Shown one piece after another: positions 892 to 54,445 of a DNA stretch of 64,000 bases (the stretch's first letter is position 1; each line of letters begins with the position of its first letter). The DNA lies in assembly GCF_004010195.1 (NCBI RefSeq), contig NC_057719.1, positions 26,874,418 through 26,938,417 on the forward strand, in the 5' to 3' direction. A program made the position numbers and the translations under genes. The notes under the pieces are model-generated. The model ran no database searches and was not told the DNA's origin. It saw nothing but the letters and a program-made list of their open reading frames with translations. This stretch comes from Chiloscyllium plagiosum (Eukaryota).

Positions 892-1098
892 TGATGTGGA
901 GGTGCCGATGTTGGACTGGGGTGTACAAAGTTAAAAATCACACAACACCAGGTTATAGTCCAGCAGGTTTATTTGGAAGCACTAGCTTTCAGAGCACTGC
1001 TCCTTCATCAGGTCCTGATAAAGGAGCAGTGCTTTGAAAGTTATTACTTCCAAATAAACCTGCTGGACTATAATTTGGTTTTGTGTGATTTTTAATTT
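892..1098. mobile_element. Penelope pLTR-derived fold-back insert, two HHR motifs head-to-head
   Basis: Inverted arms centred on 1013 (cagg-t-cctg). TSD agaataagca at 882-891 and 1099-1108. Same family as the pLTRs at 24543 and 27130-27330. Confidence 0.85.
980..1013 (-). ncRNA. Minimal type I hammerhead ribozyme motif (GGAGC family)
   Basis: Minus strand reads ac-CTGATGA-a-ggagc agt gctct-GAAA-gc-TA-gtg. The partner arm (1015-1045) is decayed (CTGATAA). Confidence 0.7.
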
Positions 1099-2679: not shown

Positions 2680-2860
2680 CCAGATTAGAGTAGTGCTGGT
2701 CTCTCTACCCTGGAGGCTCCCTGCCTTCAGTCCTGATGAAGGGCTTTTGCCCGAAATGTCGATTTTCCCGCTCCTTGGATGCTGTCTGACCTGCTGTGCT
2801 TTTCCAGCACCACTCTAAACTAGACTCTGATTTCCAGCATCTGCAGTCCTCACTTTTGCC
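2680..2860 (+). mobile_element. Short HHR-bearing PLE-derived insert inside the solo LTR
   Basis: 13 bp TSD catgttacattgt at 2667-2679 and 2861-2873. First 20 bp are an inverted copy of an internal segment. Confidence 0.85.
2729..2764 (+). ncRNA. Minimal type I hammerhead ribozyme motif (GGGC family)
   Basis: agtc-CTGATGA-a-gggc tttt gccc-GAAA-tg-TC-gatt. Stem I agtc/gatt; predicted cleavage after 2760. Confidence 0.75.
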
Positions 2861-3530
2861 CATGTTACATTGTGTCTTATTGAGAACACTTGGTGCTATC
2901 ACTGCCAACTTTTAACTCTCTTAAAAGGTATAGTTCACCCTCAACTTCATAACACTAATCAACCCATAGAGAGATGTTACAGCATACCTCTGGAGCAGGT
3001 GAGACTTGACCCCAGGCCACCTGGCTCAGAGATAGGTACACTGCCACTGTGCCACAGGAGCTCCTGAGAATTCAGGTATTGACGGTGGAAAATAATCTCC
3101 ATCACGTGATGAAGAGTTAAATCACTTGTGCAACATGAACTCTCAAACATCTAATGCTCAGACCTAAAGGAGTGCAGGTGACAGCTTTACCAAGGGTAAT
3201 ATGGTGGAGAGAGGAAGAAATGGACTGAGGAAAAAGGCGTTATATTTGAAGGTGAGAGTGACAATGAGTAGGTCGGTTGATGTGAATTACCAGAAATGGA
3301 CGGCCCAGGATTGAAAGTGAAGAAATCATGGAAGTCATGTTGGAAATTATACTTTTTAGCATTTCTTGGGATGCAGGGGTCACTGGTTATGCCAGCATTT
3401 GCTTCCCATTCCTTAGAGCCCTTGAAATGAGTAACTTGCTTGGTCATTTCAGAGTCCGTTTAAAAGTCATCTACATTATTGTGCATCTTGAATCACGTGT
3501 AGTCATGACCAAGTAAAAACAGCTGGTTTC

Positions 3531-3800
3531 TTAGATTAGATTACTTACAGTGTGGAAACAGGCCCTTCGGCCCAACAAGTCCACACTCCGAAGAGCAACT
3601 CACCCAGATACAATCCCCTACATTTACCCCTTACCTAACACTACGGGCAATTTAGCATGGCCAATTCACCTAACCTGCACATCTTTGGACTGTGGGAGGA
3701 AACCGGAGCACCTGGAGGAAACCCACGCAGAGGCGGGAATTGAACCTGGGTCTTTGGCACTGTGAGGCAGCAGTGCTAACCACTGTGCCATCGTGCCGCC
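3531..3800 (-). mobile_element. HE1-type (V-SINE) tRNA-derived SINE
   Basis: Minus strand starts ggcggcacgatggcacagtggttagcactgctgcctcacag, has the central gtttcctcccacagtccaaagatgtgcagg block and an (aatct)n tail. Inserted in an older repeat (about 3370-3830). Confidence 0.9.
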
Positions 3801-4216
3801 CACCGTTTCCTTCCCTAAAGAAGGCTATTGGAACCGTGGATTGGTCTGAGAATTGATGATTTGAGGGGAGAGCTTTCCTTAGGGGTCGATGCAGAACAAA
3901 AGGGGAAACATGAACGTGTCTGTTCATGGATTGAAGGAAGTAATCGTTAATGACTTTGTGGTTGAGAGGAGTGCCCGTCAGTTTGGCATGATTGAATATG
4001 AAGAATAAGGCAAGGAAGCATAGGAGAGTAGTGAATTCAAAGGAACGAGGGGAAAATGAGCTACACTGGACAGGGACATGATTTTATCTTCAGTATTGTG
4101 ATTATCATGATGCTCTTGTTAAACCAAAAGGACATTCTGCCTGCAACATAAATGAGTAATATAGTGTATGAATTTCAGTGCCAGTGTGATGCTAGGTGGT
4201 AGGCGGTATATTCTGA

Positions 4217-4485
4217 TGGCAGGGACAGCTCAGTGGTTAGCACTGCTTCCTTACAACACTACGGACCTGGGTTTGAGTCTACCCTTGGGCGACTGTCTGT
4301 GTGGGTTTCCTCTGGGTGTTCCGGTTTCCTCCTCTCGTCCAAAGATGTGCAGGTCAGGTGAATTGGCCATGGGAAATGCAGGGTTACAGGGATAGTATAG
4401 GGGGGTGAGCTTGGGTGGGATGCTGTTCAGAGAGGCAGTGTGGACTCGATGGGCCGAATGGCATGTAGAGGTTCTGTGAATTCTA
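4217..4485 (+). mobile_element. HE1-type SINE, older
   Basis: ggcagggacagctcagtggttagcactgc head, conserved central block and CR1-like tail. Confidence 0.8.
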
Positions 4486-5355
4486 GATCAACTCAAATAA
4501 CAAATCTCTTTGCAACAAGCCAAGGTATTAACTGTGCTCGACTAGTCTGTGCCTTCAAATTTCACACCAATGTATCCAACATTAGTTGTACTGTGATTGG
4601 ACAACATCTGCTACAGAAACCTGAGTGCTTACAGAACCATGCTGACAGCCATTTGTCAGTCTGGCTGGTGCCTTGTGAAAGCTGCATATGTTAATACGGG
4701 AGTGTGTACTTTGCTGACAGAGCGTGTGCACACACTGCATCTGTTACAACCTGACATCTGTTTTCAGATTCACTTCACAGGCAATGTCTTCACTTGCCTT
4801 GGTTAAAATTTAAATAAAGCTAGTCAGATAATTGTTAGCCGTCATTAATTGGTGCAATCCCCATGGCTACAGTGCTACCAATCAGAGACTACTTGCCAAC
4901 CAATCAATACCCGCTTCTCATACAGTGTGAATGTTATTTTCCCATCAGTATTTCTGAAGAACTGTCCTTCTGAATGCAGGCTGTAAAGCTTAAACATAAT
5001 GTATCTCTTTTCAGCTGTACTTGAGCTCTCAACTATGAAATGAGTCTGTTATCTTCAGTTTTTCCTCATTGTATGTGGCCAGTTTCAGATCATGGGATAA
5101 GTTAGAACTAGATTAGATTAGATTATATTACAGTGTGGAAACAGGCCCTTCGGCCCAACAAGTCCACACCAACCCGCTGAAGCGCAACCCACCCATACCC
5201 CTACATTTACCCCTTACCTAACAATACGGGCAATTTAGCATGGCCAATTCACCTGACCTGCACATCTTTGGACTGTGGGAGGAAACCCACGCAGACACGG
5301 GGAGAAAGTGCAAACTCACACAGTCAGTCGCCTGAGGAGGGAATGGAACCTGGGT

Positions 5356-5576
5356 TGAAAATGTGTTGCTGGAACAGCGCAGCAGGTCAGGCAGCATCCA
5401 GGGAACAGGAGAATCGACGTTTCGGGCATAAGCCATTCTTCAGGAAGTCCTGAAGAAGGGCTTATGCCCGAAACGTCGATTCTCCTGTTCCCTGGATGCT
5501 GCCTGACCTGCTGCGCTGTTCCAGCAACACATTTTCAGCTCTGATCTCCAGCATCTGCAGTCCTCACTTTCTCCTC
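5356..5576. mobile_element. Young HHR fold-back element (90 bp arms, 2 nt loop)
   Basis: Arms 5356-5445 and 5448-5537 are reverse complements with one visible mismatch (5435). 14 bp TSD aatggaacctgggt at 5342-5355 and 5577-5590. Confidence 0.92.
5446..5481 (+). ncRNA. Minimal type I hammerhead ribozyme motif (GGGC family)
   Basis: agtc-CTGAAGA-a-gggc ttat gccc-GAAA-cg-TC-gatt. Palindromic ACGT at loop 3. Mirror copy on the minus strand at 5412-5447. Confidence 0.8.
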
Positions 5577-5861
5577 AATGGAACCTGGGTCTCTGGCGCT
5601 ATGAGGCAGCAGTGCTAACCACTGTGCCACCGTGCCGCCCACAATTAATATACAGAAATGAAATACTGAGGTTGGAAATCTGAAGTAAATAAATAAAAAA
5701 CCTGGAAAACGCTCGAAGTCTGGCAGCACGTGTGGAGCGAGAAATAAAGTTAACATTTTATGTCTGTGAACTTGTGTGAGAAGTGATTAAATATATGATG
5801 AAGATGAGAAACCTGAAACTTTTACTTTATTTCTCTTTCCTCAGCAGGTAGTCCTGCTCAG

Positions 5862-6704
5862 TGTTTCAAGGATTTTCTGATGCAATTAATATCTAAGAAA
5901 TTCAACTGAATTATTAAATAGAAACAGGAATTAAATGTACACATTTCAAAATGATTCAGAAGATTAAGGTTAATTAAAGAGAAGGATATGTGAGTGTTCA
6001 GAGCCTTTCTGGAATACGCTGTTTTGTTTTGAGCAATGAGCCTCAGGAATGATTTGGATACTATGGCTTTAAGTGGTGTAATTTGTCCTGGTTTTTGTTG
6101 AAGAGTGTTTTTGAGCCATAGGTGTAGAGCTGTCTGGTCCAAGCCGATAAAATAAACTGCTTGCGAGGCCTTAGGGATTTTTTTCTAGATTGGAATTATA
6201 GAAGCACACCAATGGGTGGAGTCATGATCCCACAGAATCAGAATTTTAGCTGAGCTTTCAGCGGTTATTGGAGTTTTGAAGTTGACTGTGGGGGCTCTCT
6301 CTTTTTCTCTCTCGCTTTACCCGGAGTTTCTTTCTATTATAGCTAAAAGCTTGGGTTCTCTTTGTGCTGCCAGAATTGCATGTGAGAAAATCTGTTTTAC
6401 TGACTTCGCCTTTGCCAAGGGTGTGTTTATGGGATGTCACTATATTGGAACAGTTGCTGTTTGGTATTTAAGTAATTTATTATTGTTAAGTTTTCAAATC
6501 AGGTTATGTTATTCAAATTTTTCATTCTTTTGTTTGTATTTTAATTGTGACTAAGAATAAAGTGTGTTTTGCTGAAAGCCGATTAGTATGAGTTATCAAA
6601 TTAAATCTGGAACACATCAACTTACACTTGTCTTTAAAAATGATAAACGTTAACCTAAAGCCTATCTCCTTGATATATTTGGGGGGATTGGTCTGATGAA
6701 CAGC
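5862..6704. mobile_element. Probable LTR relic
   Basis: LTR-like composition with an internal AATAAA. Boundaries approximate; no TSD found. Confidence 0.35.
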
Positions 6705-6709
6705 ACATC

Positions 6710-7010
6710 ATGTAGCACAGATCCATCAGAATGATACCAATTCTTGAAGGATTAAATTATGAGGATAGGTTGCTTAAATATGGCTTGTATTCTGCTAACC
6801 TTAGAAGGTTAGGAGGTGACCTAATTGAGGTATTTATAATAGAATTCTATAGGATAGACACAGCTGGGGAAACTGTTTCATCTGGTTGAGGAGTAAAAAA
6901 ACAAATTGACAGCCAATTTTAAGGTTATTTAAAAATGAAACTTGAAAGCAGCTTTTCATATAAAGAATAATAAAAATCTGAAACTCTCTTCTAAAGGTTT
7001 TGGATGCTGG
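6710..7010 (+). mobile_element. CR1 LINE 3' fragment, decayed
   Basis: agaaggttaggaggtgacctaattgaggta encodes RRLGGDLIEV, a CR1 ORF2 C-terminal motif. Confidence 0.7.
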
Positions 7011-7389
7011 ATGAATTTATAGAATCACAATTGTTATGGTGCAGGTGGGGTCCGTTCAGTCTGTTGTGTCCACACTGTCTCTCTGAGCATTTAAACTTGC
7101 CGTCAAACTACTGCCTTTGCCCTGTAACCTTGTACTTTGGACTGAGTCTCCTGTTTTGTTTGTGAAGTGCCAGTTGAGTCCAGGTTATGGAAGGAAATTC
7201 TCCACAAGCTCTGGCTACATTTCTCATCATATCTTACCAAATCTCATTAACTATCTATCTCACCTGTACAGACCCTCTTGTCTGATTCTGTCGCCACCTG
7301 ACCACTCACCACTCTCAGAACAACTGAATATTCAATGGATATCTATCGGAAGACTGGGTACAAGTTGCGCATGTGCCTTATTTTAAAAG

Positions 7390-8700
7390 GGCCATAAGAT
7401 GTAGGAGCAGAAGAAGGCCATTCAGCCCATTGAGTCTGCTTTGCCATTTAATGAGATCATGACTGATCTGATAATCCTCAATCCGACTTTCCTGCCTTTT
7501 CCTCATAACCCTTGATTTCCTTACTGATAAAAAAAAGTCTCTTTAAAGTTGAACATGCTTAATAACCCAGCCTCATTAGCCCTAAAGGTCAAGAATTCCA
7601 CAGATTTATAGCCTTCTGAGAGAAGACGTTCCTACTCCTTATCTCTGTCTTAAACATACCATCCCATATTCTGAGATTATGCCGTCTGGTCCTAGACTCT
7701 CCTACAAGAGGGGTCGGATTTTCTGCATCTGCCCTGTCAAGTTTGCTAAGAATCTTGATGTTTCAATAAAATAATCTATCATTTTTCTATATTCCAACGA
7801 ATACAGGTTCAAACTGCTAAATGTTATCGCATAAGAAAATCCATGCATAGCTGGGATAAACCTAGTGAACCTTCTTTGAACCGCCTCCAAAGCCAGAATA
7901 ACTTTCCTAAGATTAGGGTTCCAGAACTGTTCACAGTATTCCAGCTGTGATCTAATTTGTGCCTTGTATAATTTTAGCAAAATTATCTATTTTTATATTC
8001 GATTCCCTTTGAAATAAAGGCCAACATTCCATCCATCTTCCCTCTTGCCTTCTGAACATGCATGTGAGCTTTTTGAGATTTATGCACACAGATTCCCACT
8101 GGACTTCAACTTTCTACAGTCTTTCTCCATTTAACTGATATTCAATTCCTCTATTATTCCTGCCAAAATGTGTAAGCTTATATTTTCCCACATTATATTC
8201 CATTTGCCACATTTACGTCCTCCTCTGTAGACTGTCTATGTCCCTCTGCATCACCATCACCACTTGCCTTTTCTCACCTATTTTAGTGCTATCCACAAAC
8301 TTGGGGACCCTCCAACTCAGCACTGCCCTCTTGACCTGTCCTACCTGTCCATCTTCCTTCCCACCTATCGTTTCACCCTCCCCACCAATGTTGACTCTCC
8401 TGCTCCTCAGATGCTGCCTGACCTGCTGTGCTTTTCCAGTGCCCTACTTTTCGACTCCTTCCCTTTTTGAGTAAGGGTATTACATTGGCAGTTTTCAAAT
8501 CTCCTGGCATGTTTCCAGAATGTAAGCATTCTTGGAAGATAACTACCAGAGCACCCACTACCTCTGTGACTACTTTTTTATTATCCTAAAATGCATCCCA
8601 TTTGGTCAAAGACTTATCTGCTTTGCATCCAATTAGTTTCTTCTATTTTTTTTCTCTAGTGATAGCTATTGTATTTATTTCCTCTCCCCATTTTGCCCGA
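7390..8700 (-). mobile_element. CR1 LINE fragments, with a PLE 3' remnant at about 8320-8460
   Basis: ORF 7702-7980 LYKAQIRSQLEYCEQFWNPNLRK..LEAVQRRFTRFI, and ORF 8373-8558 PGDLKTANVIPLLKKG. Confidence 0.88.
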
Positions 8701-9830: not shown

Positions 9831-11029
9831 ACAGCAAAACAAGGAGTGTTGCTGGGTTCTGACTCCCTTCCTATCCTAGACCCACAAATTCAGTACAATC
9901 CATTATCATACTTACATTGTCATATTTACATCACATACAATGTAATGATGTTCCCCTCGTCCCATAGCACTCTTGGAAGTTTCAGAAGTGATGGAATACT
10001 TGACCAATATTCATCTATTAACTCACTGACTCTAGCCTCTATTTCACTGAGATGCTAGTGTTAGATTTGCATCTCTACACATGCCTCTGCTTTTATCACA
10101 AACCTTGACTCCCTAACTACTTTTGGCAGGGATATTTCACTTTTCCCCTACACGTCTCTCTTTCCCCCATCCCATGTGTCTTTCCAGCGATGAACACATG
10201 GACCCCTAGGACTGTATTTGTCACAGGTCTCTGACCCATTTCAAACAGACCCTAGACATGACAGATCTGATATAGTTCCCCAGTGGATGATACACAGCTC
10301 AGCTGACTGCTAGTAGAGGCCCTGTTTGCTGATGACTAGACCACAGATTGTAGTCAGTCATATCTCCTGCCTGTGCCCAGTCTAGGTGGATGGCTGATTG
10401 ACTGTGGGCAAGCTCCTGGCCTGTGTGCAGACTGTGCCTGTGGCTGGCAGGAATTGCTGCTGAAACTGAGCAACTCTAGCAGCATCTGTGGGAAGAAAGC
10501 ACAGTTAACGTAGTTAACAGGTTGATTCAGTCACCAGACCTAATATGTGAACTCTGCTTTTTCTGCAAGGATAGCTGCGATATCTGCTGTGCTTCACCTG
10601 TAATTTGTTTTGTTTCAGATCTGCAATTCTTCATTTTAATGTTTGAAGTTCAGTATGACTCTTTTTCAGAACTATTTTATTGTCACTACCTGAATGGCAC
10701 CATTGGATTTTGGTTTTTCATATACTAAGAATTTTTAAGAAACATTCTTGTTAAATACTTAATCTTCTCTGCAATAAATATTTGTACAGTGAACAAATTA
10801 ATCTTCACATCAAACTAAACCTATTCTATTCTGTAGTTCAGTATTTTTGTAAACAAACATAGCTAAAATTGTCTCTAATTTTGATAGATTTTTCTCTAAA
10901 GTTTCATGTATACAAGATGGTTTTACAATTACACTGGTCCATAAAATTATGCACCGTAAACATTCATGAGGTTGGCACCACCTCGGACAAAGCAACCCAT
11001 TTTTGGCAATAGATCCACAAACATACATG

Positions 11030-15568: not shown

Positions 15569-16472
15569 TAGAACATAGAACATAGAACAATACAGCACTG
15601 AACAGGCCCTTCGGCCCACAATGTTATGCCGAACATTTGTCCTAGCTTAAGCACCTATCCATGTACCTATGGCTACCAGGCTAAGAACTTCTCATTATTA
15701 AAGAAGTATATGAAATTGGGAAGTTACCAAATGCTGTCTCTTGTGTGGACTTGTAGGCACCACTTCTTTTAGTTGGTCTATCTCAGATCTCATAAAGGTC
15801 TGTATTTGTTAGTGAAATCTGTGGGTTAATCAATTTGAGAAGAAATTTAAAGTATTCAAATGATTTAACTGAGCTTTCATGATTTTTTTTTTAATATAGT
15901 GAAGACTATAGAGCTTTATTTCATCCTTAATAACCTTTCACTTCATTGCTTATTCTTAAATCTATCCTTAAAAATATTCAAGGAGCTGCTTCCCCACAAG
16001 AACATTTCAAAGACTCACTTTGAAATGTGAAATGTGAACTGAGAAAAAGAATTTTCCTCATCTGTCTTAAATTTATATCCCCTTATTTTTAAACAGTGAC
16101 CCCTCCTTCTACGTTCACCACATACAACCTGCGAAGGCCCTTCAGGATTTTATATGCTTCAGTTGAGTCACCTGTGATTTTTTGAAACTCCAACACATGC
16201 AAGGCTGGCCTGTCCAGCATTTCACCATAAGACAATCCATCCATTTTAAACAATACTCTCACAAGCCTGCTTCAAACACATTTCCATTCTTCCTTAAATA
16301 AGATCAGTGCTGTGCACAATACTCCATATGTAGTCTTACCGATTCCCTGAATAATTGAAGCATAACCTCCCTGCTTTTATTCCATTATAAATTCTTTCCA
16401 AAATGGACAACCTCACACTTGACAGGGTTGAACTCCATCTGCCACTCCTCAGCCCAGCTCTGCATCATATCT
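15569..16472 (-). mobile_element. CR1 3' end whose interior is replaced by a duplicated segment
   Basis: (tagaaca)n tail and 3' UTR at 15569-15670. CR1 ORF2 piece (WQMEFNPVKCEVVHFG on minus strand) at 16396-16472. Confidence 0.75.
15669..16395 (+). repeat. Copy A of a 0.7 kb local direct duplication
   Basis: Near-identical to 22583-23296, from atggctaccaggctaag to ttccattataaattct. Confidence 0.95.
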
Positions 16473-16501: not shown

Positions 16502-16703
16502 GGGAGAAAGTGAGGTCTGCAGATGCTGGAGATCAGAGCTGGAAATGTGTTGCTGGAAAAGCGCAGCAGGTCAGGCAGCATCCAGGGAACAGGAGAATCG
16601 ACGTTTCGGGCATAAGCCCTGAAGAAGGGCTTATGCCCGAAACGTCGATTCTCCTGTTCCCTGGATGCTGCCTGACCTGCTGCACTTTTCCAGCAACACA
16701 TTT
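16502..16703. mobile_element. Young HHR fold-back element (about 80 bp arms)
   Basis: Arms 16541-16620 and 16626-16705. 15 bp TSD cctgaaatgtaattg at 16487-16501 and 16704-16718. Plus-strand core CTGAAGA-a-gggc ttat gccc-GAAA-cg-TC at 16619-16646. Confidence 0.9.
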
Positions 16704-17145: not shown

Positions 17146-17615
17146 TCTGCGATGACTCGGAGTAACTTCATCCTACTAGTTGGTCTCTTTAGCATTCTTC
17201 TCGGGAAATTGTGTGACAAGAGAGGCAGAAGTGCTTGCCGATGTCAGGACCTTCCAGCGTTCACACTGCTGAACACAAGGCTGCTCACTCATTTGGAGGA
17301 GAAAATGCTCGATTTGGCCAGAAAAGGCCATGACGGCTCAAGAAAGAACAGAGAAATATCAATGACAAACTGCCCACTAAGCATTGTTTATGTTATTCTG
17401 TTCTGCTCTTCAAGTAATGTCACTGCTAACTCCATTCTGAATCTGCACAAGCTTTTATCCCTCTTCCACAATGAATTCCGTCTCTTATGCAGGTACTAGC
17501 AGCTCCTAGCAAACTGCTGCCACAAAAGGCCAACACCAGAGACCCTCAGCTCCTTGACGAAGCCAGTAAACCCTCAGAGGATGGATGTGTTTCACCTGCA
17601 TATGTGCAGAGAGAA

Positions 17616-17709
17616 GCTGAAAATGTGTTGCTGGAAAAGCGCAGCAGGTCAGGCAGCATCCAGGGAACAGGAGAATCGACGTTTCGGGCATAAGCCCTTC
17701 TTCAGGAAT
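17616..17709 (-). mobile_element. Single-arm HHR-bearing insert (GGGC family), nested in an older related repeat
   Basis: Minus strand 17673-17710 reads gattc-CTGAAGA-a-gggc ttat gccc-GAAA-cg-TC-gattc. Near-TSD cagagagaa (17607-17615) and cagcgagaa (17710-17718). Confidence 0.8.
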
Positions 17710-17900
17710 CAGCGAGAAACAGAGTTAATATTTTGAGCCCAATATGACTCTTGCTCAGAACTGGTATCTATTCTGACTTACATGTTGGGAATTTGTATCA
17801 TTGAGTTTCTTGGGAAAGAGAGAAGAATTTTAAGTGAAGTGGGAATAAGATGAGTTGGGCTCATAATGAATTGCAAATATATGGAAATAAAATTACTGCT

Positions 17901-22582: not shown

Positions 22583-23296
22583 ATGGCTACCAGGCTAAGA
22601 ACTTCTCATTATTAAAGAAGTATATGAAATTGGGAAGTTACCAAATGCTGTCTCTTGTGTGGACTTGTAGGCACCACTTCTTTTAGTTGGTCTATCTCAG
22701 ATCTCATAAAGGTCTGTATTTGTTAGTGAAATCTGTGGGTTAATCAATTTGAGAAAAAATTTAAAGTATTCAAATGATTTAACTGAGCTTTCATGATTTT
22801 CTTTAATATGGTGAAGACTATAGAGCTTTATTTCATCCTTAATAACCTTTCACTTAATTGCTTATTCTTAAATCTATCCTTAAAAATATTCAAGGAGCTG
22901 CTTCCCTACAAGAACATTTCAAAGACTCACTACCCTTTGTGTGTAAAAAGAATTTTTCTCATCTGTCTTAAATTTATATCCCCTTATTTTTAAACAGTGA
23001 CCCCTCCTTCTACGTTCACCACATACAACCTGCGAAGGCCCTTCAGGATTTTATATGCTTCAGTTGAGTCACCTGTGATTTTTTGAAACTCCAACACATG
23101 CAAGGCTGGCCTGTCCAGCATTTCACCATAAGACAATCCATCCATTTTAAACAATACTCTCACAAGCCTGCTTCAAACACATTTCCATTCTTCCTTAAAT
23201 AAGATCAGTGCTGTGCACAATACTCCATATGTAGTCTTACCGATTCCCTGAATAATTGAAGCATAACCTCCCTGCTTTTATTCCATTATAAATTCT
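22583..23296 (+). repeat. Copy B (probable donor) of the 0.7 kb duplication; right part is an old minus-strand CR1 fragment
   Basis: Near-identical to 15669-16395. Confidence 0.95.
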
Positions 23297-24542: not shown

Positions 24543-25654
24543 GTTAAAAATCACACGACACCAGGTTGTAGTCCAATAGAGTTTAATTGGAAGCACACTA
24601 GCTTTCGGAGCGACGCTCCTTCATCAGGTGGTTGTGGAAGGCATAATTGTAAGGCACAGAATTTATATCCAAAGTTTACAGTATGATGTAACTGAAATTA
24701 TACATCGAAAAATACCTCAATTGTCTGTGGCGTCTTTCATCTGTTCGAATACCATGATAGTTTCACTTCTTTCATGTGTAAATCACAAAACCTTTTTTTA
24801 AAAGTTGCATTCTTAGGTTAACTAACAATTGGTGTTAGCTAGACAATATGTTGAAGGTGTTAGCCCCCTGTGTTCTCTGTGTATGCAATGATGTTTAGAT
24901 TGATTCTAATCTAACAAGTGAGATAACACAGTTTCACATGAATTCATGCAGTTTTTGAGCAAAGTACAATGTAACTCTGCAAGTACAAATTCATCCCACA
25001 AAATATATGTATAAGTGTGCATGTGAGTCTTTGTGTCTGTGTGTGTGTGTGTGTCTGTCTGGGTTGGGGGGGGTTGCAAGTGTGAGAGAGAGGGTATATG
25101 TGTGTGTAGTGAGTGTAGCGTGGTCTAAGTCTTTGAGAGGATGCATGTGTGAGTGTGGAAGTGTGTGTGTGTCTGTAAGGTTGTGTGCAAGTGTCTGCAT
25201 GCATGTCTGTGTAAATGTGTGTCTGTGTGTATGTGCATGTATAGTGCGATGGTGGTCACCTGTAATGTGACATGAACCCATGTCCCAGTTGAGGCCCTCC
25301 CTATGAGTATGGGACTTAGCTGTCAGCCTCTGCTCGGCCACTTTTCTCTGCTGCCTGTCCTGAAGTCCGCCTTGGAGTATGGCCACCCGAAGGTCCGAGG
25401 TCGAATGTCCTGGACCGCTGAAGTGTTCCCCAACTGGGAGGGAACACTCCTGTCTGTTGATTGTTGTGCAGTGCCCATTCATCCGTTGCCGTAGCCTTTG
25501 CTCGGTTTCCCCGATGTACCATGCCTCAGGGCATCCTTGCCTGCAACGTATAAGATAGACAATGTTGGCTGAGTCACATGAGTACCTACCACATACATGG
25601 TGGGAGATGTCCCCACGTGTAATGATGGTATCCATATCCACACTCTGACGCGTC
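24543..25654 (-). mobile_element. Penelope-like element 3' part (GIY-YIG endonuclease + CA-rich UTR + pLTR), left inverted arm
   Basis: ORF 24991-25641: YSCDSANIVYLIRCRQGCPEAWYIGETEQRLRQRMNGH..LPVGEHFSGPGH..RKVAEQRL..GLN, a PLE-type GIY-YIG domain. Confidence 0.92.
24596..24630 (-). ncRNA. Minimal type I hammerhead ribozyme in a PLE pLTR
   Basis: Minus strand reads cac-CTGATGA-a-ggagc gtc gctcc-GAAA-gc-TA-gtg. Sense to the GIY-YIG ORF. Confidence 0.85.
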
Positions 25655-25889
25655 CATACAACCCTGTCATGGTAGGCGCTGCAAGACGTGTCAGAGTGTG
25701 GATACCACTATTACGCATGGGGACACCTCCCACCATGTGCATAGCAGGTACTCATGTGACTCAGCCAACGTTGTCTATCTTATACATTGCAGGCAAGGGA
25801 TGCCCTGAGGCAAGGTACATTGGGGAAACTGAGCAAAGGCTACAGCAATGGATGAATGGGCACCGCACAACAATCAACAGACAAAAGTG

Positions 25890-26226
25890 GCACGGTGGCA
25901 CAGTGGTTGGCACGGTGGCACAGTGGTTAGCACCGCTGCCTCGCAGCGCCTGAGACCCGGGTTCAATTCCCGCCTCAGGCGACTGACTGTGTGGAGTTTG
26001 CACGTTCTCCCCGTGTCTGCGTGGGTTTCCTCCGGGTGCTCCGGTTTCCTCCCACAGTCCAAAAGATGTGCAGGGTCAGGTGAATTGGCCATGCTAAATT
26101 GCCCGTAGTGTTAGGTAATGGGTAAATGTAGGGGTATGGGTGGGTTTCGCTTCGGCGGGTCGGTGTGGACTTGTTGGGCCGAAGGGCCTGTTTCCACACT
26201 ATAATGTAATCTAATCTAATCTAAAA
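25890..26226 (+). mobile_element. Young HE1-type SINE inserted in the PLE endonuclease ORF
   Basis: CpG-rich full copy with (aatct)n tail. TSD aaaagtg at 25883-25889 and 26227-26233. 20 bp head is duplicated. Confidence 0.93.
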
Positions 26227-26358
26227 AAAAGTGTTCCCTCCCAGTTGGGGAACACTTCAGCGGTCCAGGACATTTGACCTTGGACCTTCGGGTGGCCATC
26301 CTCCAAGGCGGACTTCAGGACAGACAGCAGCGAAAAGTGGCTGAGCAGAGGCTGATAG

Positions 26359-26483
26359 GAGAAAGTGAGGACTGCAGAAGCTGGAGATCAGAGCTGAAAA
26401 ATGTGTTGCTGGAAAAGCACAGCAGGTCAGGCGGCATCCCAGGAGCAGGAGAAACGATGTTTCGGACATAAGCCCTTCTTCAG
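26359..26483 (-). mobile_element. Single-arm HHR-bearing insert (GGGC family) inside the PLE ORF
   Basis: 16 bp TSD gagcagaggctgatag at 26343-26358 and 26484-26499. Minus strand reads CTGAAGA-a-gggc ttat gtcc-GAAA-ca-TC. Confidence 0.88.
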
Positions 26484-27761
26484 GAGCAGAGGCTGATAGC
26501 TAAGTTCGGTACCCATAGGGAGGGCCTCAACCGGGACCTTGGGTCCATCTCACACTACAGGTGATCACATTGCACTATACACATACACCGACACACACAC
26601 AGCCACTCCTATACACACACATACACATGGACACACATATACACAGATACACACACACACACCCTTACAGGCACACACAATCTCACCCTCACACATGCAC
26701 CCCCTCAAAGACTTGAGACACTCTACACACATATATACACTCTCTCTCACACTCACAATCCCCCCAACCCAGACAGACAGACACACACACAGACAGACAC
26801 AAAGACCCATATGCACACATATACATATGTTTTGTGGGGTGAATTTGTACTTGCAGGGTTACATTGTACTTTGCTCAAAAACTGCATGAATTCATGTAAA
26901 ACTCTGTTATCTCACTTTTTAGATTAGAATCAATCTCAACATCATGGCATAGTCAGAGAACACAGGGGGCCAACACCTCCAACATATTGTCGAGCTAACA
27001 CCCATTGTTACAGCTAACCTGAGAATGTAACTTTTAAAAAAAAGGTTTTGTGATTTACACATGAAAGAAGTGTGGTATCATGGTATTCGAACAGATGAAA
27101 GACTCAACAAACAATCAAGGTATTTCTCAATGTATAATTTCAGTTACATCACACTGTAAACTTTTGCTATAAATTCTCTCTGTTAGGATTAAGCCCTCCA
27201 CTATCACCTGATGAAGGAGCGGCGCTCCGAGAGCTAGTGTACTTCCAATTAAACCTGTTGGACTATAACCTGGTGTTGTGTGATTTTTAACTTTGTACAC
27301 CCCAGTCCAACACCGGCATCTCCAAATCATGACGTCAACCTTATTCACCATTGTTTCTCATCACGCCACAAGTCATTAATAAAGATATAAAATATTTGAA
27401 TTCCAGCATTAATTCTTGTGGAACAGTAATAGTTGCTTTGTCTAGACATTACACCTTTTCAATTAAAGAAAAATTTAGGGGATACTGTTCCTTTGTGCAT
27501 TCTCTGATGCACAGCTTTACCAATCAGATTTGACTTGCCTTTTCTTGAATTTAAACAAAAGATTTGTGATCACTTCACTGGTGCATTTGCCATGGCAACA
27601 TTTTTACCAATCAGAGTCCTCTGTGAACCAATCAGCTCGTTTCCTTGCATTTGTCCTGATGAGTGCAAGATCTAAAGCTTCAACAACCTGCCTCTTTTTT
27701 CAGAAATACTCACAACATCAAACCGGAATTGGAACTGCAATCTATGCTGCATCAGCATTCT

Positions 27762-28035
27762 ATACCGGTACCACTCCCCAACACTTCCTCCGCTACATTG
27801 ATAACTGCATCGGTGCCACCTCGTGCTCCTGCGAGGAGGTTGAGCAATTCATCAACTTCACCAACACATTCCACCCTGACCTTAAATTCACCTGGACCAT
27901 CTCTATCACCTCCCTCCCCTTCCTGGACCTCTCCATCTCCATTAATGATGACCGACTTGACACTGACATTTTCTACAAACCCACCGACTCCCACAGCTAC
28001 CTGGATTACACCTCTTCTCACCATACCTCCTGCAA
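27762..28035 (+). mobile_element. Penelope-like reverse transcriptase fragment
   Basis: FLRYIDNCIGA..FINFTNTFHPDLKFTWTIS..LPFLDLSISI..TDIFYKPTDSHSYLDYTSSH, PLE RT motifs around (R)YIDD and the thumb. Confidence 0.9.
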
Positions 28036-28265
28036 AAGTGGAACAGATGAAAGACTCAACAGACAATCAAGGTATTTTTCAATGTATAATTTCAGTTACA
28101 TCACACTAAATTTTTGATATAAATTCTGTGCCTTACAATTGTGTCCTCCACAACCACCTGATGAAGGAGCGACGCTCCGAAAGCTAGTGTGCTTCCAATT
28201 AAATCTGTTGGACTATAACCTGGTGTTTAACTTTGTATACCCCAGTCCAACACCGGCATCTCCAA
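28036..28265 (+). mobile_element. Third Penelope pLTR
   Basis: Reverse complement of about 24543-24750. Followed by the TSD copy at 28266-28278. Confidence 0.88.
28155..28189 (+). ncRNA. Minimal type I hammerhead ribozyme, intact, sense to KCNH5
   Basis: cac-CTGATGA-a-ggagc gac gctcc-GAAA-gc-TA-gtg. Palindromic AGCT at loop 3; predicted cleavage after 28186. Confidence 0.85.
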
Positions 28266-29392: not shown

Positions 29393-29545
<153 letters not shown>

Positions 29546-39846: not shown

Positions 39847-42800
39847 AGTGAGAAGTCATTTGTCTTATTGTGTCTGTGGCAGTTCTTTAAAAATACAATC
39901 ACTGCTCTTTCCCCATAGCAAAGAAGTATTTCCATTTCAAATATTTGTGCATTTTCAGTTTTGTTTCCAAGCAAAAGGGCCACTAAACTGATAGTATCTA
40001 CAGCCATCCTTTGTGTTTGGTGAGGCTGTGCAGGCTAAACTAAGCTACGTCAATGCAGAACATATGATTAGGAGCAGACTGCAAACACTGGCCAATGAAT
40101 CAAGACAAGACTTAAGATTCCTTTTGATGATCGCCCTATTGAACAGTTGCATTGCTGACTATAGAACTTTTTTGCTCTTGTTCTCAGTGGGATCATCATC
40201 CATGGGAGCTGATGACATATTGTTACTTAGAAACCATCTGTTGATATTACTTTGAGCTCCTCAAGGAACAATGATATCTCATTTGCAAACGATGAATGCA
40301 TTGTGACAACTGTCGGCAAATTTCAAATAAAAACGGAAAATTCTTGAAATGCTCAGCATGTCAGGCAGCACCTGTGGAGAGAAGATGGTTAGGATTAATA
40401 TTTCAAATATTTAACCAGATCTCTGAGTGTTCAGAGCTTTCTTTGTTTTAATTTAATTTAATTTTTTCCAGCGTTGCTTTTTGTCTGGTTGTTACTAGTG
40501 ATTTAATTGGATGCCATACACTGCATTTTCATTCTTTTCCGTCATTGTTCATCAGTTATCTGAATTGTTGATAATAAGAACATGAATTGCAGTTCATGAA
40601 TACTGACATTTTGGTATATAGGTAAAGCTTTTTCTATAATTATGCTCATAATCTTAATGTGTTGACATGCTGAATTTTTCACCTTGTCACAGACACTGCA
40701 CATTCAGACAGTTGAGTGCACCTCTGTTGTGGCAATTGATGGAATTCATTTCAGCAGGAAACAAAACAAATAGAGAAGAACAAGTAGGAAAGGGAAGCTC
40801 AGAAGACTGAAACAGGTAGAAGAGTTAGAGGATTATCAAAAAATCATGGAGCAGACTTGATGGGTTGAATGGAACAGAGATATAAATAGACTTTTGAATT
40901 CATGGAAAATGGGATCTGTAATCTCTTTACATCTATATTACCATCCAGGAAAGTGTGAAGTGCCATGACTATAACATTCCTCACGTAAGCTTGCCACAGG
41001 GCATTGCAAGGGGGGAGACTTGGAAGCCAAGAAGGTAGCAAAGGACTTGAGGGTCGGAGGGGGGGGGGGGGGGGTGTTTGTTTGGGAAGAGATGAAGCTT
41101 GAGAGGGTTGAAAGGTGAAGCAATCTTGGAAATGTTAAAAAGGACATTGGCAGAATGCCTGAGAAAACATAGAAGTGATCTCTGGCAGGAGGGAAGTTAG
41201 TCAACAGGTACTGTGGCACTGTTTTGGAGATCAGAACATAAAGATAAGGACTCTGGAGTCATATGTAACTTTGTTTTGTGAATGAGAATACAGCAGAAAG
41301 CTTTTTAATCTTTCCTAACTAGGTGAGCACATTTGTTTATATTTAAACTTGTGAAAAACCAGTTTCACAAACACTGAACAATTGCTCTGTAACCTGTAGT
41401 TTGCAAATGCTGACAATATTAATAATGCATGTAAAATTGAACAAAGCTACAAAAAATAGGCCAATGTTATAATAACCTTTTCTTTTACAAAATGAATAAA
41501 TTACATCTGTAACCGATGAAGTATTATAATTACTTGCAAAGAATAGATAATGATGGCTAATAATTTGAAATCACTGAAACAAATGGAATCACTTCCCTTT
41601 TCTATCTGATACATTCCTGAATAACACATTGTTGGTAGGCAAAGTTCTAATCACGTTAGAATTCACAAAGAAACAGCAGCAGAACAGTGACGGGAAAAAT
41701 TGTTTGAACAGTTTAAATGTAAAAATATTTCCGAGGTGGACAATCATACTTAGCAAATGATTGTCGATGATGATGACGATGCAAAAAGATTCAAGCTAAT
41801 AAAATCAGTGTGTTGGAATCTTGGTGCTACAGTATTTAATATTGTTTTAAAAAACATTAGGACGAAATAACTTGGTCTAATGGAAATGATTTACTGGTGA
41901 TTTAGTTGGTTTCCATATATTTCATTTCAATATTTTTTACTTTATTGGTCATTGGTTCAACTAGAAATAAGAAAATGAAGTTACAATTTCTGTATATTGG
42001 TATTTCTCTATATGACTGAAACGTTGTCATAATTAAACTGGGATTTTGTCTGAGAAGCATTTCGTATATTTATGGTAGAATTGAAATAATTTACTCTCAT
42101 TTCAATAGAACAATGTGACAGTATCTCCAAATGCTTACATCTTATTATGATTTTCTTTTTTTTATTGCTACTCCCTTAGGCTTAATAGCTTCAAGTCATT
42201 AATTTTGATTTCTGCAGATAATGTTTTTACTGCATTCTCTGGTCTGTGTAAATCATCTATTTCTCAGTTGTTTTATCATACAGTTATATCATTTACATAA
42301 ACCCAGTAACATTCCAATGTGCTTTTCTCAATGATGGAATATTACAAATATTGCTTGACTTGCCTCAAGTTTCCTGGCACTGACTGTAATTGCAGACTTT
42401 CTGTTGGTAATGGTCTGTATAATGCAATCAGTTGGCATTTTCAGTTTTGTGAGCATAAATTGTTTTCTTTATCATATTTTGTAAATATGTCACTTAATGC
42501 AGTGTTGAAAGGAAATGAGTCGTGAAATCTCACAAAATGTTCCACTCTCTGGCAGAATTAAAACGTAATACATTTGCAATATCAGAAATTGCCACCAAAC
42601 AGTAATCATCACCTCTATTGTTTATTTTGTCCTCATTTTTTGTCATTTAATTTTTCTTTTGCACCTCCTCTATGGTAGCTATAAAAGGAGAATTGTGTTA
42701 CATTTTATACCTGTCACCCCATTTATTTGTAATTTACCAGCACCAATCAGGCACAGTATCCAGCCTGTTGATTGCTATCCTGTCAGGTGGATAGCAATAA

Positions 42801-46729: not shown

Positions 46730-48170
46730 AAAAGTCTTAAAGATGTGTAGCAGCCACTTGAGAGTTGTATATTCAATATTCTGATTTTCTACCAAACAGC
46801 TTTCAAAACTGCTCTTTTTCCATGTGTGAAGAGTCTTATCTGATCATTGCAAGGAGTGGGTGATGGACTTCAGTGCAGTTCTTTGATGCTCAATTCAGAA
46901 TACCTTGAACATGGTTTATTTCGGAGCCAGACTATTGGATATGTATGGCGGCACAAACATGCATTTCATGTGAGTGTTGATGTGGCTTCAGAGCCAGCAG
47001 ATCAAAAGCAAACTTGATTTTCTCATTTCAGCAGTTACAAAACTGCTGTGAGCAGTGTAGACTATTCCATATTGCCTTCATAGACCTCGGCAAGGCCTTC
47101 AACAGCAATAGAGATGGAGTCCTAGACTCTTGCCATCATTTTTTCTTTCCATCAGGATATGTGTATTTATGTTAGATTCAGTCAAGTATGTCATCAAAGG
47201 CTTTTAACGTCAGCAATAGAGTTCAGCAGGACTGGTGCTCTCTCTTGGCATATTTTTCTGTACACTGCTATTGTATGCCTTCTGCAACTGAAACAAAGGT
47301 GTGTAGCTGCAGGCCGGAGCTGATGCCAAGTTTTTCAACTTGTAAAAGTTTAGGCTAACAACAAAGTCTTTACTGACTTGACAACCTGTACTGAAGCTGA
47401 CTGACAGCAGCTTATAGCCCTGATCATCAGCATCTGAAAGACCAAAGTTATGGGGCTAGGATGTATAGATTCTACCTTCCATCAATGTTGATACCCTCCC
47501 TCTGAAGGATCGACAATTACCAGCAATTTGTCCCTTGAAGCAAAACAACCAAAATTTCTAAGCACTGTGTTTATTAGGCTTATGTTCTCTGCACCCTCCT
47601 TAGAGCAGCGAGGCTTGGACAACTTCTGTCAGCCAAGAAAAGCAGCGGAACAACGTCCAACTCTACTGCCTGTCCTGAATTTTATGATCTCCTGGCAAAA
47701 GAGAGCTTTGACAAAGGGTCAGTTAGACTCGAAATGTCAGCTCTTTTCTCTCCTTACAGATGTTGCCAGACCTGCTAAGATTTTCCAGCATTTTCTCTTT
47801 TGGTGGCAAAAGAGAGTGCTGGGCATGGAAGGCCACCAGTGTGCAGGGATCCATGGCATTTCTGCGCAGGTATTAGCTAGGCCATGTGAGCCAAATTGAT
47901 GGTGGTCACATCCCCAAAGACATTCTGTATGGCGGGCTTTACCCAGCTCACCCCCAACTGTTTTACAAGGATGTCTGCAAGCTAGACCTCAAATTGTCTG
48001 GGTCGGGAATGCCTGAAAGCAAAGGACAAAAAATAAAAGACCTGATGCTAGAAATTGAGAACCCGTTGGAAGGAGGAAATTTCAGTTACCTTGGGTCAAT
48101 GCAATTCACCTGTACTGACTATGGAAGGGATTGGCACTCTTGAATTGGCCCAAGCAGCCACAACAAACCA
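46730..48170 (+). mobile_element. RTE-clade LINE relic
   Basis: 46981-47118 encodes CGFRASRSKANLIFSFQQLQNCCEQCRLFHIAFIDLGKAFNSNRDG; about 47880 encodes GHVSQIDGGHIPKDILYG. Both are typical RTE/BovB motifs. Confidence 0.8.
47706..47803 (+). mobile_element. Short HHR-like insert (GGGTC family, variant core)
   Basis: 13 bp TSD tggcaaaagagag at 47693-47705 and 47804-47816. Reads agagct-TTGACAA-a-gggtc agtta gactc-GAAA-tg-TC-agctct. Confidence 0.75.
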
Positions 48171-49165: not shown

Positions 49166-49294
49166 CCTGATGAAGGGCTTTTGCCCGAAACGTTGATTTT
49201 CCTGCTCCTCGGATGCTGCCTGAACTGCTGTGCTTTTCCAGCACCACTCTAATCTAGAATCTGGTTTCCAGCATCTGCAGTCCTTGTTTTTACC
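49166..49294 (+). mobile_element. Single-arm HHR-bearing insert (GGGC family), sense to KCNH5
   Basis: 10 bp TSD ctgggaaatt at 49156-49165 and 49295-49304. CTGATGA(49167)-a-gggc tttt gccc-GAAA-cg-TT-gatt. Confidence 0.85.
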
Positions 49295-49386
49295 CTGGGA
49301 AATTTGCATGACTATTGAGTTCCAATGAGCACAATAGCCCAAATGCTCATTGTGAACACAAATGCGGATGGTTGCCAATGATTATG

Positions 49387-49950: not shown

Positions 49951-50100
<150 letters not shown>

Positions 50101-51509: not shown

Positions 51510-51647
51510 ATAAAACCCGAAAGAATTGTGAATGCTGTAAATCAGAAACAAAAAACAGAAATTGCTGGAAAATCTCAGCAGGACTGGCAGCATCTGTGGA
51601 GAGAAAGCAGAGTTAATGTTTCGGGTCAAGTGGCCCTTCCTCAGATG
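51510..51647 (-). mobile_element. HHR-bearing pLTR-like repeat (GGGTC family)
   Basis: Minus strand 51612-51647 reads CTGAGGA-a-gggcc actt gaccc-GAAA-ca-TT-aac. Confidence 0.7.
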
Positions 51648-54302: not shown

Positions 54303-54445
54303 ATAAAAACTGGATAGAACTGCAGGTGCTGGAAATCAGAAACAAAAACAGAAATTGTTGGAAAAACTCAGCAGATCTGACAGCATCTATGGAGACAAAG
54401 CAGAGTTAATGTTTCGGGTCCAGTGACCTTTCTTCAGAACTGTTC
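54303..54445 (-). mobile_element. HHR-bearing pLTR-like repeat (GGGTC family)
   Basis: Minus strand 54405-54440 reads gtt-CTGAAGA-a-aggtc actg gaccc-GAAA-ca-TT-aac. Ends in the mini-palindrome agaac-t-gttct. Confidence 0.75.

Follow-up and report, generated by a model that had tools for sequence, protein, structure and literature searches.

We found that the insert at 5356–5576 of the window (the whole 64-kb stretch of shark DNA analysed here) is one recent, 5'-truncated and dead-on-arrival retrotransposition event that has been well preserved, and that it is very probably the end fragment of a Penelope-like element (PLE). We give good probability to the full explanation, in which the machinery of an endonuclease-bearing PLE produced the insert in that one event. 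This architecture is already published and not new, the locus being a further example of a described kind; taken by itself, it is an ordinary dead retroelement stub. As a class, young hairpins bounded by TSDs offer clean junctions for the unsolved question of the inverted ends and tails of PLEs, and counting arm ends across such hairpins can tell priming from two target nicks apart from snap-back.

Architecture of the insert and its host SINE

The insert and its surroundings are made up as follows:

5356–5445, minus strand: inverted pLTR arm of 90 nt, without tail, its outer end at the pLTR/tail boundary
5446–5447, plus strand: spacer of 2 nt between the arms
5448–5537, plus strand: direct pLTR arm of 90 nt
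5538–5576, plus strand: tail of 39 nt, adjoining the direct arm only
5342–5355: left copy of the TSD, 14 bp, overlapping the B box of the host SINE
5577–5590: right copy of the TSD, 14 bp
5101–5645, minus strand: tRNA-type SINE, multi-copy, split by the insert, with its A box near 5629–5619

The 90-bp arms, 2-nt loop, single mismatch, kept CpGs and perfect 14-bp TSD that an earlier note had described from the sequence were all confirmed. The arms are 99% complementary, with the lone mismatch at 5435, and each keeps 4 CpGs against a CpG observed/expected ratio of 0.24 in the window. Both TSD copies (5342–5355 and 5577–5590, 14 nt) are 100% identical, and in a chance control the best flanking repeat reached at least 10 nt in 6 of 3000 random position pairs; besides the TSD, there are no direct repeats inside the insert region. 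The RNA of the insert is predicted to fold at -186.9 kcal/mol (z -23.8), a value that none of 200 shuffles equalled.

The insertion into a SINE, also proposed previously, holds as well, with the precision that the SINE reads on the minus strand and was cut inside its B box. This SINE is 87.9% identical to an unsplit copy at 25903–26223, where the target sequence occurs once. Its classing rests on the A box, the B box and its multi-copy status, and it is putatively an HE1 / V-SINE element. A literature search gave HE1 as a SINE that derives from tRNA and occurs in sharks and rays. Pol III transcription of the split SINE could run on into the hairpin on the minus strand, where the first T4 lies at 5361, but the B box of the SINE is mutated and split.

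A search of sequencing runs with 3800–7800 listed 24 matches, none of which was an RNA dataset. Eight of them, from two studies of one organism and possibly including the source sample, hold 0.68–0.82 of the words, and six from a second organism hold 0.29–0.30, these values being word shares over 4 kb and not specific to the insertion; matches with a small share were left aside.

A Penelope-like family in the window

The window holds seven insertions of the same family: the insert itself (copy A), copies B–F and a decayed copy at about 8.4 kb. They are listed here together with a fold-back of a second family:

16502–16703, minus strand: copy B, fold-back, its direct arm beginning inside the hammerhead core; 15-bp TSD
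26357–26485, minus strand: copy C, single arm with tail; TSD of up to 16 bp
2680–2861, plus strand: copy D, with an inverted stub of ~20 nt (by eye), ~33 nt of upstream sequence, direct arm, tail and 13-bp TSD
49166–49295, plus strand: copy E, single arm with tail; 10-bp TSD
17612–17713, minus strand: copy F, one arm that lacks a tail; its TSD is no longer than expected by chance
8387–8439: decayed copy of a diverged subfamily, with upstream sequence present and the core deleted
892–1098, minus strand: fold-back of a second hammerhead-bearing PLE family with the same layout; 1-nt spacer, 10-bp TSD

At the insert, an inverted 5'-truncated pLTR stands beside a direct pLTR, a minimal hammerhead lies inside the pLTR and the family's TSDs vary in length, as in PLE insertions. 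One TSD encloses the inverted arm, the direct arm and the tail, which is the published PLE pattern; this bears out the PLE origin by a single retrotransposition that had been proposed, together with the long TSD and the asymmetric tail (39 nt, on the direct arm only) named in its favour. In published insertion units of endonuclease-positive PLEs, a direct pLTR is preceded by an inverted, 5'-truncated one, and one end carries a tail of 30–40 bp (PMC8557442); rotifer PLEs have TSDs of 8–10 bp and palindromic head-to-head junctions (PMC3846280). As far as the available text of these two sources goes, their units and the shark insert have in common the head-to-head inverted 5' copy, the one-ended tail (39 nt here) and the hammerhead in the pLTR, whereas the TSDs measure 8–10 bp in the published units and 10–16 bp in the shark copies. 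Also unlike them, the shark insert comprises the last 90–130 nt only, with abutting arms, no ORF and truncation at the front edge of the hammerhead.

No full-length element of this family is present in the window. The read-through end of P0015, a shark protein of RT and GIY-YIG type, finds its best match in the window just upstream of the 8387–8439 copy (10 of 16 residues, E 8e-4), a single short match made through a diverged subfamily copy. A 41-residue frame runs open across arm and tail in the insert and is closed early by a stop in copies D and E; a homology search with it gave no true homologue, its lone match being a repetitive unrelated protein. These results give no support for arm plus tail as the start of an ORF. 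Searches for the family motifs in metagenome contigs and viral contigs returned 0 loci.

The note had argued that the structure only resembles a MITE, and our tabulation of the window agrees. Long fold-backs make up two of the seven insertions (A and B), with different apices, and the other five have no long inverted arm. A tail of 30–40 bp at one end is found in five of seven. The TSDs of the six copies tested (A–F) measure 14, 15, 16, 13, 10 and 5 bp, that is 10–16 bp in five of six, the 5-bp TSD and the 5-nt stub of copy F being at chance level and given no weight. Terminal inversions at both ends, a short TSD of fixed length and a constant structure, which would mark a MITE, are thus absent. 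A hairpin mobilised whole as a 221-bp unit, MITE-like or retrozyme-like, would account for a compact, near-perfect terminal inversion that is young and bounded by a TSD. However, apices, arms and TSDs vary, the tail lies outside the inversion and a second PLE family folds back alike, which makes transposition of the hairpin as a unit highly improbable. Non-LTR retrozymes, in the available part of bioRxiv 10.64898/2026.07.22.740005, are like the insert in being non-coding and PLE-derived and in bearing a type I hammerhead; they are head-to-tail tandems, with a hammerhead in each unit, whereas the shark insert is a single head-to-head unit with no tandem units.

A private G at 5518 is mirrored at 5375 and is missing from copies B (both arms), C, D, E and F. 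Both arms thus go back to a single source, which speaks against two successive single-arm insertions, the later one having hit the front of the earlier one in head-to-head orientation. Single-arm copies do exist (C, E and F), and the Anolis PLE cuts within its own pLTR in vitro (PMC11167929), but a single TSD surrounds the whole unit and no inner duplication is seen; two separate events are therefore most improbable. A fold-back chimera produced by assembly or library preparation would be another source of inverted arms, and assemblies are known to have difficulty with inverted structures of PLEs (PMC8557442). Against this stand the mismatch between the arms, the 14-bp TSD, the outer end at a boundary common to other copies, and the same layout at 16502–16703 and 892–1098 with different apices. 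On these sequence features, an artefact behind the inversion appears very unlikely.

Several TSDs have ATT or AAT at or near one end, in too few cases to claim a target preference; a preference for ATT has been reported for the PLE of Anolis carolinensis (PMC11167929). An apparent shared variant at the outer end of copy B was dropped because it overlaps the TSD. Copies B (16618–16703) and F (17621–17706) are separate young copies in opposite orientation, 0.9 kb apart and 99% complementary, and could form a long-range duplex in what is probably the same intron.

Origin of the mirror arm

We favour, with moderate confidence, an origin of the mirror arm by two-nick priming, a mechanism of which we infer every step. 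Two start sites would bracket the tail, and each target nick would prime reverse transcription from one of them. The mirror arm would be newly made at every insertion, and the hammerhead would be a passenger (cargo) of the pLTR.

First, the inverted arms of copies A and B and the stub of copy D have their outer start within ~5 nt of the pLTR/tail boundary and differ in their inner ends, while the direct arms of A–E finish at the end of the tail. Outer ends that stay fixed whatever the arm length favour two-nick priming over snap-back, being where such priming would place them. The previous suggestion of fold-back or twin priming as the source of the structure is supported. Second, the stub of copy D adjoins no apex and yet begins at the pLTR/tail boundary, which is hard to obtain by snap-back. 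Third, of 11 inner arm ends (including the stubs of D and F and the 8.4 kb copy), 6 fall upstream of the CUGA box by 1–4 nt and 0 at the predicted hammerhead cut, 28 nt downstream. Cleavage by the ribozyme therefore does not set the arm end, and we rejected it as the cause of truncation. The spacer at 5446–5447 was probably templated, as the same letters stand in front of the core in the native sequence of copy D (2733).

PAc, the Poseidon PLE of Anolis carolinensis, has been studied in vitro: it cuts both strands and extends them, its two reverse transcription starts bracket the tail and match the shark boundaries, and hammerhead cleavage is dispensable (PMC11167929). Unlike the shark copies, PAc was observed in vitro and comes from another species; in the available part of PMC11167929 the formation of inversions was not reconstituted, and the clade of the shark family may differ.

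In the snap-back alternative, the element is likewise a PLE, and the cDNA (or an antisense template, as proposed for rotifer PLEs) folds at the hammerhead and copies itself. In the literature, the palindromes formed by head-to-head PLE copies are explained by such self-priming (PMC3846280). The junction of copy B, with a 3-nt overlap and a 5-nt loop, can form a 3-bp stem at the apex, and it fits snap-back equally well as the annealing of two cDNAs, which counts against the two-nick reading. Also, the private base common to both arms of the insert is expected if one arm was copied from the other. However, the 2-nt spacer of the insert leaves no paired primer, and snap-back alone leaves unexplained not only the apex-less stub of copy D but also the fixed outer end and the tail on one arm. 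The sample bearing on the mechanism is small, with two long fold-backs of the insert's family, and we consider snap-back improbable.

In L1 twin priming, the second nick primes an inverted cDNA, and the junction may use microhomology. Two-nick priming in the shark family would be like it in that the inverted cDNA starts from the second nick. Unlike the shark arms, which copy the same segment, L1 arms are adjacent, non-overlapping parts of the RNA and form no palindrome. A literature search on twin priming and Penelope, with coverage mostly of papers outside subscription, gave nothing on PLEs by title or abstract.

Hammerheads, probable host gene and other fold-backs

The hammerhead motifs of the insert are:

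5450–5477, plus strand: minimal type I hammerhead with CUGA box, an extra nucleotide before a 4-bp Helix II, GAAA and palindromic 15/16 positions, without Helix III; predicted from hammerhead numbering to cut after 5477
5419–5443, minus strand: minimal hammerhead core in which G10.1 is changed to U through the 5435 mismatch

The window contains 10 matches to CTGANGA..GAAAC against 1.25 expected, among them those at 5450–5474 (plus strand) and 5443–5419 (minus strand). A hammerhead on each strand had been claimed: motifs do lie on both, and they are minimal, without Helix III, the minus-strand copy having its closing pair G10.1-C11.1 broken by the U at 10.1. The Rfam hammerhead models gave 0 matches at the gathering score across the window; on the insert, below that score, Rfam gave only generic microRNA-hairpin and snoRNA matches and no hammerhead, the microRNA matches reflecting the perfect stem. 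The motifs are like the minimal hammerheads of metazoan PLEs (PMC4209133) in the absence of Helix III, the extra nucleotide before Helix II, G10.1-C11.1 and the palindromic 15.2-16.2 positions. As in that source, they occur mostly as solo copies from truncated PLEs, and opposite-strand pairs are already recorded there, at distances of ~100–700 bp compared with 6 nt between the cores of the insert. Sharks are absent from the examples in the results and discussion of PMC4209133, whose supplement may list shark motifs, and a search of mostly open-access papers for shark Penelope hammerhead ribozymes gave only a review.

By computed folding, a hammerhead-compatible fold would cost 48 kcal/mol in the whole insert and 1.5 kcal/mol in a single arm, in agreement with the earlier expectation that the long hairpin out-competes the hammerhead. 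The idea that the hairpin thereby silences its own ribozyme carries little weight. A relaxed pattern, which misses the damaged minus-strand core of the insert, lists 12 cores in the window. Relative to the probable host transcript, 6 are sense and 6 antisense, and the sense cores at 2733, 28158 and 49167 have no long antisense arm alongside. Minimal hammerheads are inactive as monomers (PMC4209133), inverted copies give no tandem partner, and unpaired sense copies persist in the same gene; silencing is therefore unneeded and a by-product, and we rejected it as an adaptation. In a single arm, 5495–5501 pairs with 5549–5555, enclosing the pLTR/tail boundary; both segments are kept in most aligned copies, and this pairing is a candidate protein-binding or initiation structure.

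Two exons of a potassium channel gene lie in the window:

29421–29544, plus strand: Eag-type potassium channel exon covering residues ~27–65, the first coding exon found in the window
49989–50095, plus strand: next exon, residues 67–101, best match KCNH5 (34 of 35 residues)

Both exons encode a KCNH5-like PAS domain, the 29421–29544 exon scoring slightly higher with KCNH1 than with KCNH5; a motif search did not reveal the first exon of the gene in the window. The whole window seems to consist of introns of this KCNH5-like gene. Intron 1 is the probable site of the insert, which would be transcribed antisense arm first. If the locus is intronic, the pre-mRNA would bear the 90-bp duplex as a by-product, and the hammerhead would be buried in the hairpin without a tandem partner. 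The duplex, of 182 nt, contains 44 adenosines. A 90-bp duplex with that many would be a fair ADAR substrate, and the suggestion that the hairpin could serve ADAR or Dicer is plausible by analogy. For PLEs, siRNAs matching Penelope inverted repeats were reported in transgenic flies (PMC3681739); a literature search on PLE inverted repeats and A-to-I editing, with most subscription papers outside its coverage, found only a human-focused review.

Three recent short hairpins, from two families, lie in the 64-kb window. If transcribed within introns, such hairpins would offer ADAR or Dicer ready-made substrates, something that the searchable literature has not examined in this lineage, and as a class they may supply intronic dsRNA in sharks. 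As a tentative joint reading, which we hold as possible and not as probable, the stubs would record PLE integration directly: a dimeric protein would prime from both target nicks at two starts bracketing the tail, on RNAs with their 5' end just before the hammerhead. Nearly every insertion would then be a stub of 90–130 nt and a good share of them perfect hairpins. Shark pre-mRNA could owe its long, near-perfect dsRNA mainly to these dense and often intronic stubs, which would serve ADAR as inverted Alu pairs do and give siRNAs against their own family.

A large fold-back of the second PLE family is also present:

24543–27331: inverted arm of ~1.1 kb, with an ORF fragment of the endonuclease region at the apex

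The counterpart of this ORF fragment in RT-bearing shark proteins is their C-terminal endonuclease region. The fold-back was later invaded by the SINE at 25903–26223 and by copy C, and no TSD was seen around it by eye. At 27653–28042 (plus strand), a PLE reverse-transcriptase fragment, 82–87% identical to Chiloscyllium proteins, runs straight into the second family's 3' end, the junction being either a chimera or a nested insertion. Retroelement fragments of the window have matches of 82–95% among proteins named from Chiloscyllium punctatum, and a Pfam search with six ORF fragments from the window gave 0 families.

A third, related family left old decayed fold-backs at 5696–5880, 10450–10620 and 40325–40480, the arms of the first (5731–5773 and 5801–5843) being 72% complementary; judging from this decay, the fold-back habit is old in the shark lineage. 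An old-family single arm without tail at 47700–47810 (plus strand) begins at the hammerhead front and is flanked by 12-bp direct repeats (by eye). Stretches resembling a splice acceptor (pyrimidine tract and AG), followed by ATG, occur after the hammerhead at 51594–51620 and 54394–54420 (minus strand) and at 47735–47760 and 8387–8410 (plus strand). The last of these is in the 8.4 kb copy and the others are in the older family; copies A–F carry GG at that place. The stretches may correspond to the pLTR intron known from PLEs. Finally, a 727-nt direct repeat links 15669–16395 and 22583–23296 at 96.6% identity.
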